From Dehalococcoidia bacterium (GTDB taxonomy: Bacteria; Chloroflexota; Dehalococcoidia; Dehalococcoidales; BS750m-G39), in contig JASFHK010000005.1 of the NCBI GenBank assembly GCA_050123275.1, forward strand, positions 9,887 to 73,886: DNA of 64,000 nt. The letters are read 5' to 3'. This document shows positions 35,473 to 42,073 of this stretch, one piece after another; position 1 is the stretch's first letter, and each line of letters opens with the position of its first letter. A program made the position numbers and the translations under genes. Below the pieces are notes generated by a model that was not told the DNA's origin, searched no databases, and saw nothing but the letters and a program-made list of their open reading frames with translations.

Positions 35473-36525
35473 ATGATTGACAAATTCATGAAAGCTATGC
35501 ACAGGCTTCACAAAGGACAGCGGGGCATGACCGGTCTGGAAACAGCCATTATCCTGATTGCCTTCGTGACAGTGGCTGCGGTGTTCGGCTACGCCGTACT
35601 GAGCGCCGGCATCTTCTCTGCGGAGCAGGGGAAGGAAACGGTCTACGCTGGCTTAGAGCAAGCCAAGAGTTCCATGGAGCTCAAGGGCTCGGTAATCGCC
35701 TACGGTGCTCCGGGAGATGAAGGGACAATCAACGACTGCGATGACGACAGCGACTGGACTGCCAGCGCAGGTGTGGCAATTACCCAGGCTATAGGTTACG
35801 GCGGTGGTCACAGCCTTCAGCTAACCCTTGATGGAACGACAACCAGTTCTGAGTTCGGCGGCGGTCTGGCAGCCTACGGCACCAGCTCTACCGCAGACTT
35901 GTCCCAGAAAAGCTATATCAACCTCTATGCTATGACGGATACTGATATGGCGGCTGGCGACTTGAAGTTACGAGTCAGTGACCAGGCTGATTGTACTGCA
36001 CCGCTGGAGACTCTAGACCTGCCAGCGCTAACTGCTGGTACCTGGACGCTGATCACCCTCACCCTTGATAATCCGGGCGTGGATCTGGGTATCTTGACTG
36101 TCGGCATAGAAGGTCCTGACATGACCGGAGCTGGCTATGATGCGATTGTCTACCTGGACAGCATTGTTGCCGGACCTCCTTATAACCATGCCGAGCTCAT
36201 TGTTTTCTCGGTGTCCAACGCTATCGCCGGTAAGCCGATAGACCTGACCCCAAGTCCAGACAACGTTACCGTAATCAGCTATACTGACCGCAATATTTTT
36301 GAGCCCAACATAACCTGGACTGTCAGCTTTGTCGGTCAGAACGACGGCGATTACCTGCTGGAGATGGGGGAGCAGGCACAGGTAGCGGTATCACTGGGTT
36401 TCCTAGCTGTTCCGCCAGGACCCAATGCTGAAATCGGCTTGCAGGTGAAGCCGCCTCATGGTTCCGTAATCAGCATTGAGCGGACGATACCAGCCAACAT
36501 AGATGCCGTTATGGATCTGTACTAG
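35473..36525 (+). CDS. arlB: Archaellin (archaeal flagellin, ArlB/FlaB family) with class III signal peptide and a ~155-aa inserted domain
   Basis: The sequence is [18 protein letters not shown] | [56 protein letters not shown]. This is the archaellin-specific N-terminus as in Methanomicrobia-type archaellins. The C-terminal beta-domain is archaellin-like. AGGAG lies 6 nt upstream of the ATG. Confidence 0.85.
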   Translation: [350 protein letters not shown]

Positions 36526-36560
36526 GGAGACTTTAATCCCGAGATAACAAGATAACATGA

Positions 36561-38904: not shown

Positions 38905-40617
38905 ATGCCACAGGTAAGCCTGCCATTTACGAAGGAAAACAAAGCCGATAAACACGGAGAGGACTTCTTTCAGTGTACTCTCTTCCAGATGTTGCCCAAG
39001 CCGGCGCAGGAAGCCAGCCAGCGCCATCCCCACCTGCTGGAGTACCTGCACATGGTGCCGGTGGCGGAAGTCGGCATGCCCAAGTACTACTCCCAGCTTA
39101 CGCGCCGTATGCAGGACATCAGTCACCCCAACCTGATCTATCCGGTGACCGAGGGTGTCTTCGCACATATTTACCCGGACCTTCACGACGGCAGGGATAT
39201 GTACATCTCCGTCGAGCCTGTGCTTGTCGAGAAGCTTGACAAGCTGATGCAGTCTCTGGAAAGGCGGATGCTGGATATGGGTGACCGTCTGGATACTGTG
39301 AGCACCGATGACGATAAAAAAGAAGCGTTCGTGAGGTGCGTAGATGAGAATTTTACCACGGGGAGGACCGGGGGGGGCTTGTTCAGACGGTCCGGCAAGA
39401 ATGGAAAAATCAGGGTGACGCCGCACCAGATGGAGGGACTCAAGTATCTCATCGTGAGGGACAAGATAGGGCTGGGCATACTGGAGCCCATGGTTCACGA
39501 TCGCTATGTAGAAGACATCAGCTGCAGCGGCCTGGGCACTATTTTTATAGAGCACAAGATCTTCCGCAGCCTGAAGACCCCGATCAGCTTCGCCAGCCTG
39601 GAGGAACTGGACGAGTTCGTCCTCAGGCTCTCCGAGCGAATCAAAAAGCCGGTGAGCTTCCGCAATCCAATAGTGGATGCCTCTCTCCCCGACGGCTCGA
39701 GAATAAACATCGTCTACGGACGCGATATTTCAAAGCGGGGTTCTAATTTCAGCATCCGTAAGTTCAGCGAGACGCCAATGTCGGTCATGGAGCTCATCGA
39801 ACTGGGAACGTTAGACTACAGGATGGCGGCCTATCTTTCCCTCGTCATCGGCGAGGGGATGAACGTTTTCGTTGCCGGAGAGACCGCCTCAGGCAAGACA
39901 ACCACACTGAATGCGGTGACCACCTTTATCCACTCAAATGCCAAGATAGTTAGCATCGAGGATACTCCTGAGCTTCAGGTACCGCACAAGAACTGGATAA
40001 GGGAGGTGGTACAGACTACCAAGGAGCAGTCGGAAACCGCGGTCACCATGTTCGACCTGCTCAAGGCGGCGCTCAGGCAGCGGCCGAACGAAATACTGGT
40101 GGGTGAGATTAGGGGCCCGGAAGGGAACATTGCCTTTCAGGCGATGCAGACCGGGCACTCGGTGATGGCCACCTTCCACGCTGCTTCGGTGGAGAAACTA
40201 ATCCAGCGGCTCACCGGTAATCCGATAAGCGTCCCCAAGGCATATATTGACAATCTTAACGTGGTCGTGGTGCAAAGCGCGGTCAAGCTGCCTACCGGGA
40301 AAACCGGCCGGCGGGTGCTCAGCATCAACGAGGTGATAGGCTTTGACCCGATTAAGCAGTCGTTTTCCTTCGTGGAAGTATTCCGGTGGGACCCGGTCAA
40401 TGATGTTTTTGAATTTACCGGGGATATGAACAGCTATCTATTGGAACAGAAGATAGCTTTAAAGCGTGGTATCCCTTCCCACAATAAGAAGCGGATTTAT
40501 CTTGAGCTTGACCGCCGGACGCAAATTCTGGAGAGGTTGCATAAGGAACAGGGGGTTTCAGGATTCTATGAACTTCTTCAAGTCCTGGCCAAAGCGCAAA
40601 GAGAAGGGCTCTTTTAA
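38905..40617 (+). CDS. arlI: ArlI (FlaI) archaellum assembly/motor ATPase (type II/IV secretion NTPase superfamily)
   Basis: It has Walker A [11 protein letters not shown], an IEDTPEL motif, [14 protein letters not shown] and [16 protein letters not shown]. The protein is 570 aa long. Confidence 0.9.
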   Translation: [570 protein letters not shown]

Positions 40618-42073
40618 TAAAGACCTCCTCGGCGTAGACCTATTCTGCCAGATGACATATATGTCGGCCGTGGCTACGTCGGGGCTGACGCGCAGTCAGA
40701 TATTTGAAAGCGCGGCGCGCCTTCCCTATACCTCGTCGCGTTACTTCAAGGACGTGCATTTTCTGGCCCAGAAGCTGAATTATGACTATGCCCAGGCCTG
40801 CCGCATTGTCGGTGATGCCACTAAAGAGCCGGAGCCAAAAGCGCTTCTCCTTCGTCTTTCAGGCTGTGTCGCCTCGGGGGAGCCTGAGGCTAACTTTCTG
40901 GCCCGCGAAGCCTCTGTGATGGGGGAAGTATACGGCAATGGGTACGAGCGGTCGGTGGAAACGCTGCGCAAATGGACTGATGCCTATACCGCCCTAATCC
41001 TGTCGGCGGCACTAGTCATCGTTGTCGCCGTGGTCTCCATGATGATATACCCGGTGGCGCCGACCTTCGTTATAACTCTCTGCGGGCTGGTGCTGATGGT
41101 AACCGCACTCGGCTCCTGGATTATGCACCGGGCCTCTCCCAAGGAGGTAAAGACACACTCACTGGCCGATACTTCAGCGGAGCGTAAACTATCTCATCTC
41201 CTGGTGAAAATATTCCTGCCGGTGACCGCATTAGCCTGCCTGCTTATGGTCTTGGGAAATATGAGCATGGGAAGCATAATGCTGGTGGCTGCGGCGCTGC
41301 TGTTCCCGCCCGGTGCGGTAATTATGTGGGAAGACCGTAAGATTGATAATCGGGACCAGGACATCGCCGGCCTGCTGCGCTCCTTGGGTGGAATTACCAA
41401 GGCAATAGGAACGACGGTCTCGGAGGCTTTGTCCAGGCTGGACCTCCGCTCGGTTGCCTCACTGCGGGGGGGAACCAAGAGGCTGCGTGACCGGCTTGGT
41501 CTGGGAATCAAGCCGGAACTCTGCTGGGACAGGTTTATCGCTGAGACGGGGAGCGAGCTGATTAACCGGAGCGTGCGTACCTTCTGGGATGGGGTCAGCC
41601 TGGGAGGCGATCCCCAGGAGGTTGGAAACCGTTCGTCCCTGTTCGCCATGAGGGTAGCGCTACTCCGGGCGAAGCGGAGGATGGTATCATCCAGCTTTAC
41701 CTGGCTGTGCATTACCATGCATGCGGCTATCGTCGGCCTGCTGGTGTTCATCTATGAGGTGATGCAGACATTTTCCGGCGCGCTGCAGAATATGGGGAGT
41801 GTAGAGAACGGGGCTTTGGGCGAAATGCCGAGCCTGCCCAGTTTTACGTTTCTGCTCGGCGGCAGCCAGTTGGAGCTGCTGCACTATGTGGTCATAGCCG
41901 TGATAATAGTGCTCACCGGCGCTAATGCCGTAGCCATTAAGGTGACCGGCGGCGGGCACAGCTATAAGCTCTTTTTCTTCCTGAGCATAACACTAGCCAT
42001 ATCGGGTGCATGCTTTATCTTTATTCCGAACGTGGTAGACATGATATTCGGTAGCCTGCCGCCGATGCAGTAG
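40568..42073 (+). CDS. arlJ: ArlJ (FlaJ) polytopic membrane platform protein (T2SSF-like)
   Basis: I chose the start at the ATG at 40568, which overlaps the arlI 3' end by 50 nt. An alternative ATG lies at 40652. The conserved region begins DLLGVDLFCQMTYMSAVATSG, and multiple TM segments follow. Confidence 0.8.
   Translation: MNFFKSWPKRKEKGSFNKDLLGVDLFCQMTYMSAVATSGLTRSQIFESAARLPYTSSRYFKDVHFLAQKLNYDYAQACRIVGDATKEPEPKALLLRLSGCVASGEPEANFLAREASVMGEVYGNGYERSVETLRKWTDAYTALILSAALVIVVAVVSMMIYPVAPTFVITLCGLVLMVTALGSWIMHRASPKEVKTHSLADTSAERKLSHLLVKIFLPVTALACLLMVLGNMSMGSIMLVAAALLFPPGAVIMWEDRKIDNRDQDIAGLLRSLGGITKAIGTTVSEALSRLDLRSVASLRGGTKRLRDRLGLGIKPELCWDRFIAETGSELINRSVRTFWDGVSLGGDPQEVGNRSSLFAMRVALLRAKRRMVSSSFTWLCITMHAAIVGLLVFIYEVMQTFSGALQNMGSVENGALGEMPSLPSFTFLLGGSQLELLHYVVIAVIIVLTGANAVAIKVTGGGHSYKLFFFLSITLAISGACFIFIPNVVDMIFGSLPPMQ

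Follow-up and report, generated by a model that had tools for sequence, protein, structure and literature searches.

Evidence for an arl2-type archaellum operon in a tRNA-Lys-linked segment of a Dehalococcoidia chromosome

The window analysed here, a stretch of 64,000 nucleotides (nt) from a contig assigned to a Dehalococcoidia bacterium (JASFHK010000005.1 of assembly GCA_050123275.1, positions 9,887 to 73,886), contains a cluster of co-directional genes that very probably represents a nine-gene operon of the arl2 type, encoding an archaellum and located on a Dehalococcoidia chromosome. The segment enclosing this operon (34524-45224) appears on balance, to judge from repeats, base composition and gene content, to have come from a Dehalococcoidia lineage of lower GC content and to have been integrated at the 3′ end of a tRNA-Lys(CTT) gene. 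According to an earlier note on this DNA, a bacterial genome here contains a complete archaellum operon of archaeal type, and archaellum-specific hidden Markov models (HMMs) and profiles, together with the collinearity of the flanks with genomes related to the host, bear this claim out. Archaella of Chloroflexota were published between 2023 and 2025, however, so that the headline claim, though correct, has lost its novelty; the tRNA-linked island context and the insert-bearing filament subunit seem to be what is new.

Two earlier studies provide the framework for this analysis. Lim et al. (2023) reported flaB in 40 of 212 Dehalococcoidia genomes and cultivated SAR202 bacteria with archaellum clusters, although archaella were not seen on cultured SAR202 cells carrying such a cluster (PMC10444878). 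Sivabalasarma et al. (2025) detected archaellum clusters in 243 genomes out of 3,780 from Chloroflexota, solved the filament of Litorilinea aerophila by cryo-electron microscopy (cryo-EM) at 2.7 Å, demonstrated swimming, and inferred a transfer from Methanotecta-type Euryarchaeota to the ancestor of Dehalococcoidia and Anaerolineae (PMC12488501). The remark in the earlier note that such loci had been seen in a few Chloroflexota was therefore right in kind and understated in extent, and the inter-domain transfer of a whole machine which it deduced holds, as an ancient and already described event rather than a new one. Chloroflexota clusters are described as following the arl2 order, in which arlG precedes arlF; they contain arlCDE homologues, and their signal peptidase is encoded outside the locus (PMC12488501). 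The window fits this description on every testable point, and the phenomenon itself is thus already known. The present analysis adds evidence for a later move within Dehalococcoidia, the island context, a long archaellin bearing a carbohydrate-binding module (CBM)-like domain, and two conserved accessory genes.

Seven open reading frames (ORFs), all on the forward strand, occupy positions 35473 to 42073 with gaps of 100, 8, 8, 4, 12 and -50 nt (Table 1), at the coordinates and with the tight spacing and overlap given in the earlier note, and the motifs which that note quoted are all present in the translations. The first ORF encodes an archaellin, which scores 69.1 bits on Pfam Arch_flagellin (PF01917, cut-off 29.5). 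It has a class III signal peptide for which cleavage is predicted after Gly18. Residue 19, directly after KGQRG, aligns with the mature N-terminus of the L. aerophila archaellin (9i5h), and phmmer matches the protein to five solved archaellins. The product of arlI matches the archaellum ATPase FlaI model NF058587 over residues 46-569 with 662.4 bits (cut-off 550), and that of arlH the FlaH model NF004723 with 266.5 bits (cut-off 194), including a Walker A motif GQSDAGKS. ArlJ is matched over its full length by NF004703 (443 bits, E=1.2e-132) and by ArlJ models only; as this score lies below the equivalog cut-off of 570, the assignment holds at the level of family membership. With at least six hydrophobic segments it is the polytopic membrane protein described before, but its start is most likely the ATG at 40568 (MNFFKSW...) and not position 40466, since the gene call on the independent Logan assembly L001 (SRR11698124, k=31) starts there and the HMM match begins there.

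The two small genes between arlCDE and arlH gave weak single-sequence HMM matches (21-28 bits against a cut-off of 110, with 28 bits for NCBIfam ArlG and 23 for ArlF). Profiles were therefore built from alignments with positional homologues from 20-23 other loci and searched against the PDB. The family of the gene at 37216 matched the solved soluble domain of FlaG (5tug/6pbk, E=3e-15), and that of the gene at 37677 the solved FlaF (4p94, E=1.3e-10). The predicted ArlF/ArlG pair is thereby confirmed, with the gene order corrected to arlG followed by arlF. The FlaD/E-like assignment of the second gene stands in part. The protein has homologues encoded at the equivalent position in 51 loci, Methanomicrobiales among them (27% identity over 201 aa, E=1e-14), but it has no match in Pfam or NCBIfam, and its profile found no solved relative in the PDB. 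It is called arlCDE-like here on the basis of its position and of homology to the same-position archaeal gene. The order B-CDE-G-F-H-I-J is common to most of the 53 loci compared, among them those of ANME-1, Methanosarcinales and Methanomicrobiales.

The operon does not end at arlJ, as the earlier note had it: two further co-transcribed genes, X and Y, belong to it, and it thus comprises arlB, the arlCDE-like gene, arlG, arlF, arlH, arlI, arlJ, X and Y. Gene X begins 13 nt past arlJ and is overlapped by Y by 4 nt. Among the compared loci (designated L plus a number), equivalents of X are found 3′ of arlJ in L003-L006, L008-L011, L014, L019, L020, L118 and L122, and homologues of Y in 12 loci from GTDB genomes. 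The X and Y pair follows arlJ in every inspected member of the subclade to which the ArlI of the window belongs, and was not found 3′ of arlJ in the archaeal loci compared. Relative to the copies in L118, X is 56% identical (ratio of non-synonymous to synonymous substitution rates, dN/dS, 0.38-0.44) and Y 79% (dN/dS 0.27). Y has a Pfam TIG match and an NCBIfam GxPGS_dom match of 50 bits (cut-off 45). X and Y probably tie the machine to the envelope, and they are candidates for the anchoring of archaella in envelopes of the Dehalococcoidia type. Within X, three tandem 51-nt repeats (42394-42546, 80-86% identical) encode a 17-aa unit of the type PAAGEPVGAG(I/V)AKK. A third conserved gene past Y, for a polytopic membrane protein of about 580-640 aa, is present in L003-L006, L008-L010 and L019, and absent from both the window and L118.

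Each of the nine ORFs is intact and as long as its orthologues, and their dN/dS values, from 0.06 (ArlH) to 0.44 in comparisons with both L118 and L122, reveal purifying selection, which argues against the genes being silent relics. GGAG/GAGG-type ribosome-binding sites precede arlB, the arlCDE-like gene and gene X, in agreement with the Shine-Dalgarno sites of AGGAG/GGAGG type noted before. Some observations weigh against a complete archaellum system. Arch_fla_DE remains below threshold in four homologues of the arlCDE-like protein (14-17 bits, cut-off 21), and neither a prepilin peptidase (Peptidase_A24) nor chemotaxis genes were detected among the window ORFs scanned.

Table 1. Features of the archaellum operon and of its immediate surroundings (positions in the window).
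Feature	Position	Strand	Remarks
arlB, archaellin, 350 aa	35473..36525	+	Pfam Arch_flagellin
arlCDE-like gene, 193 aa	36626..37207	+	N-terminal coiled coil, linker, C-terminal FlaD/E-like domain
arlG, 150 aa	37216..37668	+	N-terminal transmembrane (TM) helix (residues 1-19) and beta domain
arlF, 164 aa	37677..38171	+	N-terminal TM helix and Ig-like beta domain
arlH, KaiC/RecA-like ATP-binding putative regulator of ArlI	38176..38892	+	NF004723
arlI, putative hexameric assembly/rotation ATPase	38905..40617	+	NF058587
arlJ, polytopic membrane platform, 501 aa	40568..42073	+	NF004703; 50-nt overlap with arlI
Gene X, 215 aa	42087..42734	+	One N-terminal TM helix, basic stretch, acidic repeat-containing low-complexity tail
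Gene Y, 515 aa	42731..44278	+	Signal/TM segment, Ig-like TIG/PGS/Big repeats, C-terminal TM anchor
Stem-loop in the 100-nt arlB-arlCDE spacer	36558..36607	+	Inverted repeat
Regulatory region	35157..35227	.	arlB promoter, divergent marR promoter-like site, palindrome
Sigma-70-like arlB promoter, TTGACA-18-TATACT	35157-35186	+	287 nt upstream of arlB
Divergent promoter-like site for marR	35207-35179	-	Overlaps arlB promoter
Perfect palindrome CATATACGA-N5-TCGTATATG, 9-nt arms	35205-35227		Read from sequence
MarR-family regulator	34527..35045	-	Divergent from arlB; Pfam MarR 34.8 bits, cut-off 24.6
Repeat D3a, 64 nt	34427..34490	+	Terminator-like hairpin 34445-34479 of upstream FAD/GltD-type oxidoreductase gene; outside putative island
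Distal att-like repeat, 28 nt	34496..34523	-	Copies tRNA-Lys 3′ end; left boundary of low-GC segment
Repeat D3b	44305..44368	+	Operon-ending terminator hairpin 44326-44354 and T-run
Lipoprotein-like gene, 233 aa, lipobox ...SVGC	44370..45071	-	Putative island cargo
Proximal att-like repeat	45225..45252	-	Right boundary of low-GC segment; within 80-nt tandem unit
tRNA-Lys(CTT), encoded CCA	45303..45378	-	ARAGORN; Rfam tRNA 65.3 bits; presumed integration target

The L. aerophila locus shares with the window the arl2 order, an arlCDE-type gene (arlCDE-like in the window) rather than arlX, and the absence of a signal peptidase gene from the locus. Its host belongs to the Caldilineae, whereas that of the window is a member of the Dehalococcoidia; its archaellin has 183 aa, as against 350 aa with an insert at the position of its residue 70; and its neighbours are PilN/PilO-LysM genes where the window has X and Y past arlJ. 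The arl2 clusters of Methanotecta (ANME-1/Methanophagales, Methanosarcinales, Methanomicrobiales) have the same core order B-CDE-G-F-H-I-J as the window; ArlI is 54-58% and ArlG 35-44% identical, and the ArlCDE-like protein has the same layout of coiled coil plus C-terminal domain. The N-terminus of the archaellin in the window is of the Methanospirillum type (5tfy, E=2.5e-11). Unlike these archaeal clusters, the window has a sigma-70-type promoter and strong Shine-Dalgarno sites. 'Ca. Lucifugimonas marina' of the SAR202 group, also a member of the Dehalococcoidia, has the same flaGFHIJ order, with six tandem and six scattered flaB genes and no flaCDE listed (PMC10444878), whereas in the window arlB is long and present once, and an arlCDE-like gene follows it.

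A working model can be drawn up after the well-studied archaeal and L. aerophila systems. A class III peptidase of the PilD/PibD type, whose gene would lie in another part of the genome, would cut pre-archaellin after Gly18. A hexamer of ArlI on the ArlJ platform would use ATP first to assemble and then to rotate the filament, its activity being modulated by ArlH. ArlF and ArlG may form a membrane-anchored stator, and the ArlCDE-like protein a cytoplasmic ring or switch.

Relatives of the locus were collected by scanning one genome per GTDB species for ArlI. Among the best 80 loci, about 65 were from Chloroflexota MAGs (metagenome-assembled genomes; 54-80% ArlI identity) and 10 were archaeal (54-58%). 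In a distance-based neighbour-joining tree of ArlI (81 sequences, 562 columns, midpoint-rooted, no outgroup), the sequence of the window pairs with that of L002, a Guaymas Basin Chloroflexi contig, in 100 of 100 bootstraps and inside a Dehalococcoidia clade, and the archaeal sequences form one split (97/100). The phylogenetic check proposed in the earlier note thus places ArlI among Chloroflexota and apart from archaea, within the limits of a midpoint-rooted distance tree. The closest copies of the module were found on two JGI contigs, L118 and L122, with 96% identity for ArlH, 94% for ArlI and 89% for ArlJ, and 85% at the nucleotide level; a last protein search returned nothing above 94% ArlI identity, no donor-like copy, and none with an intact mobile-element context. 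The similarity of L118 and L122 to the window is confined to positions 35422-44281 (on L118 it starts 51 nt before arlB and ends at 44281), and their surroundings differ from those in the window and are GC-poorer. Two short arl contigs in the tree carry unexpected names: L033 (QNDS01000161.1, 'Fermentibacteria') falls within the Methanosarcinales clade and L037 (JAIVWR010000083.1, 'Acidobacteriota') within the Dehalococcoidia clade, and on the strength of this placement both are probably mis-binned.

The identity of the host emerges from the flanks. HypF (4761-7067) is 80% identical to a protein named 'MAG: Dehalococcoidia bacterium' and 74% to a 'Dehalococcoidales bacterium' one, and the first 17.7 kb of the window are collinear gene for gene with NCBI MAG contigs. 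With one of these, a 299-kb Dehalococcoidia contig (GCA_030605135.1), the window shares 81% nucleotide identity over 13.7 kb, and nine flank genes are collinear with amino acid identities of 77-90%. The collinear series comprises NiFe hydrogenase, HycI, FlpD, HypF, flavin reductase, HypCDEAB, URO-D and three FAD/CCG oxidoreductases. From these flank genes, together with the prevalence of Chloroflexota in the ArlI scan, we conclude that the host is a Dehalococcoidia (Chloroflexota) bacterium, in keeping with the bacterial surroundings described before. Four rounds of Pfam and NCBIfam searches found no ribosomal, sigma-factor or cell-wall markers in the flanks, which encode metabolism common to both domains together with bacterial-leaning DegV and TRAP genes; the TRAP DctPQM system and two DegV genes are present as reported, and the tRNA-Lys(CTT) encodes its CCA (ARAGORN). 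No bacterial flagellar genes were found within the 64-kb window.

The segment that contains the operon is delimited by two 28-nt repeats that are 100% identical, the first 19 nt of which equal the 3′ end of tRNA-Lys (45305-45323). This 19-mer is present three times in the window, where chance would give 0.05 copies. The earlier note had singled out the junctions near 34.45 and 45.3 kb as possible sites of chimeric assembly; the suspicion was well placed, but what lies there are tRNA-derived direct repeats and not assembly joins. Between the repeats lie the MarR gene, the nine-gene operon and the lipoprotein gene, 10.7 kb in all, with a GC content of 0.536 compared to 0.591 on either side; elsewhere in the window the lowest value for a stretch of 10.7 kb is 0.581 (standard deviation, sd, 0.004). 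GC at third codon positions (GC3) is 0.55-0.70 in all 11 inner genes (0.66 in the MarR gene), as against 0.72-0.85 in flank genes. The lipoprotein gene (GC3 0.551) has the lowest GC content in the window (0.483), has no Pfam match and is without homologue in related loci. An 80-nt tandem unit (45177-45256/45257-45336), made of spacer and tRNA 3′ fragment, adjoins tRNA-Lys. The independent assembly L001 diverges right after 45252, with 13 differences in 47 nt that correspond to another spacer variant (L001 13430-13575), which indicates that the repeat array is polymorphic. A further repeat, D3, is present in two copies that are 88% identical (D3a and D3b, Table 1) and has only these two in the window, against none expected.

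Relatives were also compared at the left boundary, where the distal tRNA fragment lies 70 nt past the stop codon of a FAD/GltD-type gene. The left-flank gene cluster was found in 36 relatives, none of which has arl genes at this position or tRNA-Lys beside the flank gene; in two of them a complete tRNA (Thr or Val) is located exactly where the window has the tRNA-Lys fragment. The island context of the window is not general to Chloroflexota arl loci, as a tRNA occurs within 10 kb in only seven of the 80 loci and tRNA-fragment repeats around the arl genes in none of them. Neither the MarR regulator nor a tRNA-island context was found described in PMC12488501.

The main alternative, which we regard as a serious though rather doubtful one, is vertical descent of the operon from the Dehalococcoidia/Anaerolineae ancestor that first obtained it from Archaea, the repeats being unrelated scars and the low GC content a property of arl genes. 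The published model of a single ancient transfer into a common ancestor is in its favour, as are some of the observations that weigh against integration. The arl clusters of 53 other loci have a mean GC content below that of their flanks (mean difference -0.014, sd 0.021), and the difference of -0.049 in the window is the fourth most extreme of 54 and not unique, so that composition alone is a weaker proof of transfer. The module and the host flanks have diverged from their closest relatives to a similar extent (85% and 81% nucleotide identity, respectively), so that vertical and lateral descent cannot be told apart by similarity alone. The segment contains no integrase, recombinase or remnant of one; no recombinase family was matched among the window ORFs scanned, and its three intergenic gaps contain only ORFs of at most 81 aa, which lay outside the homology searches. 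Nor did a true empty site come to light, since the left-flank relatives are only 64-77% identical. Moreover, the proximal repeat is set off from the tRNA by the 80-nt tandem unit, D3, with one copy outside the segment and one inside, does not fit a simple attL/attR arrangement, and the right junction was not reproduced by L001. Integrase-less blocks bounded by tRNA fragments and holding ordinary metabolic genes are also known from relatives: in L084 (7029-7059/12423-12496) a 31-nt and in L091 (2406-2453/13824-13897) a 48-nt exact copy of the tRNA-Thr(CGT) 3′ end lies 5.4 and 11.4 kb, respectively, from the tRNA, the repeats bracketing a xanthine-dehydrogenase-like gene cluster with no integrase inside. 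This shows that the tRNA-fragment pattern recurs in the lineage, yet that ordinary genes may also occupy such blocks.

Four observations nevertheless argue against purely vertical descent. The break in composition coincides exactly with the repeats and includes cargo other than arl genes (MarR and lipoprotein genes). The GC3 of the module (about 0.65) equals that of the copy in the lower-GC L118 and not that of the host flanks (about 0.80). Upstream regulators kept in nine relatives are gone, similarity beginning shortly before arlB. Finally, none of the relatives with the same left flank has arl genes at that position. The reading we prefer is thus that the segment came from a Dehalococcoidia lineage of lower GC content and was integrated at the tRNA-Lys 3′ end. 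A bolder extension of it can be put forward only tentatively: the module would be the cargo of an integrase-less, tRNA-Lys-targeting island still moving among Dehalococcoidia, its control by a LuxR-type regulator and CheY-like receiver would have been swapped for a MarR-type repressor, and its archaellin would display a shuffled CBM-like or receptor-binding-type domain, which would make for a combined filament for motility and adhesion. If integration is the correct reading, a full motility machine was packaged in about 9 kb, moved between bacteria and re-wired to a new regulator; if such islands are mobile, lateral spread, and not only one ancient transfer followed by loss, would shape the patchy distribution of archaella (about 6% of Chloroflexota genomes).

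Genomic islands in the related genus Dehalococcoides offer a point of comparison. The vcrA island is reportedly linked to ssrA, its direct repeats copying the 3′ end of this small-RNA gene, and Dehalococcoides islands are said to carry their own site-specific recombinase and a dehalogenase as cargo. The window and the vcrA island have in common a tandem repeat array at the target and compositionally distinct cargo, and the hosts belong to the same class; in the window, however, no recombinase is present, the target is tRNA-Lys and not ssrA, and a motility machine takes the place of the dehalogenase as cargo. Mention of the vcrA genomic island is made in PMC10117805.

The upstream region of arlB provides further clues on the history of the segment. 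In nine relatives of the same subclade (L118, L121, L122, L003, L005, L006, L008, L009 and L019), a LuxR-type response regulator and a 154-aa CheY-like receiver are encoded upstream of arlB, and the window lacks both; a GAF/HisKA_3 kinase is also present upstream of arlB in L118 (the set being at 6428-9906), L121 and L122. This LuxR/CheY-like set, with the kinase where present, may be the element that has been missing to connect the bacterial archaellum with signalling. The move of the segment would have cost it the LuxR-type regulator and the CheY-like receiver, leaving arlB behind a sigma-70-type promoter and next to a divergent MarR gene. The promoter reported directly upstream of arlB was recovered, and it and the overlapping divergent site for marR each match 11 of 12 consensus positions. 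A perfect palindrome in the same region is a candidate MarR operator. No marR homologue adjoins the arl genes in any of the 80 loci. Further downstream, the spacer between arlB and the arlCDE-like gene folds into a hairpin of -41.5 kcal/mol (z=-4.5; none of 200 shuffled sequences was as stable), which probably serves as an attenuator or mRNA stabiliser setting the ratio of subunit to motor. A search for known RNA elements in the 290-nt leader of arlB gave one weak, meaningless match. The leader contains short tandem repeats (35356-35400, 35407-35436), and a 57-aa ORF in the gene call of L001 (35307-35480), which overlaps the start of arlB and is not conserved in L118, is probably no gene.

The archaellin is the most unusual component of the operon. 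Its alignment to 9i5h (phmmer, E=8.7e-38) consists of two blocks, residues 20-87 and 241-349 corresponding to residues 2-70 and 70-182 of the L. aerophila protein, and the 153 aa between them (residues 88-240, nt 35734-36192) constitute an insert absent from the solved bacterial archaellin. An AlphaFold2 model built with 44 homologues (mean pLDDT 86.5) has a helix at residues 21-65, and in a Foldseek search this model retrieved 9i5h first (E=2.2e-13), then archaeal archaellins, and also jelly-roll modules of the CBM4, CBM11 and CBM22 families; Pfam CBM_11 is matched by two of the 44 long archaellins. The insert, which resembles these modules in the model, probably decorates the exterior of the filament. 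Used alone as a query, it finds 446 representative proteins of 118-1739 aa, including phage tail-collar and adaptor proteins and other surface proteins, a spread that points to a shuffled surface module. The best relative of the insert outside archaellins, P0361 (672 aa), has a PilN domain followed by three copies of an insert-like domain. Long archaellins are common in Chloroflexota, with dozens of full-length matches at 36-72% identity, next to short ones without the insert, and they are not mentioned in PMC12488501. This family would be an informative structural counterpart to the L. aerophila filament.

At the nucleotide level, arlB differs from the rest of the module, its synonymous divergence (dS) being about 1.0 as against 0.17-0.41 for the other genes, as expected for a surface-exposed, recombining subunit. 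A 194-aa archaellin without the insert from another metagenome (P0137) is 96% identical to the N-terminal ~77 residues of ArlB (35473-35700), which together with the dS of arlB suggests domain swapping or recombination at this gene. The CBM-like domain, the occurrence of its relatives in phage tail-collar, adaptor and other surface proteins, the lack of chemotaxis genes and of a CheY-like receiver near the copy in the window, and the cultured SAR202 cells on which archaella were not seen (PMC10444878) would all be compatible with a filament that is mainly adhesive or glycan-binding and does not serve for swimming. We consider this improbable: the parts specific to rotation (ArlH, ArlF, ArlG, and an ArlI past the FlaI equivalog cut-off) are under strong purifying selection, the homologous L. 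aerophila system powers swimming, and adhesion and motility are compatible with each other.

A different composition from the flanks, bounding repeats of 19-28 nt, on which an assembler with small k might go wrong, and a right junction seen in one assembly only might also suggest that archaeal or other DNA was mis-assembled onto a bacterial contig. This is very improbable in view of the second assembly. L001, whose k of 31 exceeds any exact repeat here, is identical to positions 31746-45252 without a single difference and covers 2.75 kb of the high-GC left flank and the entire arl segment; identity across the left junction, together with the bacterial flanks, indicates that the contig is bacterial and this junction real. 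In addition, ArlI, ArlH and ArlJ are 89-96% identical to copies on contigs of Chloroflexota type, compared to 54-58% for archaeal ones, and the repeats reproduce the 3′ end of the tRNA next to them, as a product of integration would and a chance overlap would not.

That a bacterial Tad (Flp) pilus, a type IV filament of archaeal ancestry with a related ATPase and platform protein, was misread as an archaellum is hardly credible: ArlI matches T2SSE/TadA/VirB11 models as does every member of the superfamily, but in the profile comparison proposed at the outset it passed the FlaI cut-off and failed those of TadA (TIGR03819, 155 bits against 373) and PilB (62 bits against 676), its second-best family being bindosome BasE (186 bits), and Tad systems neither rotate nor have the ArlH, ArlF/G and archaellin found here, the closest structure to the subunit being an archaellum filament.

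Two regions outside the segment deserve mention. An Rfam PYLIS_3 match at 27592-27691 raised the possibility of a methanogen or other archaeal contig, which was rejected on account of the collinearity between the flanks and Dehalococcoidia MAGs and because the MttB-family ORF of 480 aa containing the match is uninterrupted. Next to this ORF are genes for a second MttB homologue and for a corrinoid protein that binds B12, and the region (24917-28657, reverse strand) looks like a non-pyrrolysine methyltransferase system, the uninterrupted frame marking a non-pyrrolysine family member and the PYLIS_3 match reflecting coding homology. Just past tRNA-Lys, the reverse strand (45546-51788) encodes a secreted, C-terminally anchored protein of 2080 aa with many PKD/Ig-like repeats, whose gene is host-like in composition (GC3 0.73).

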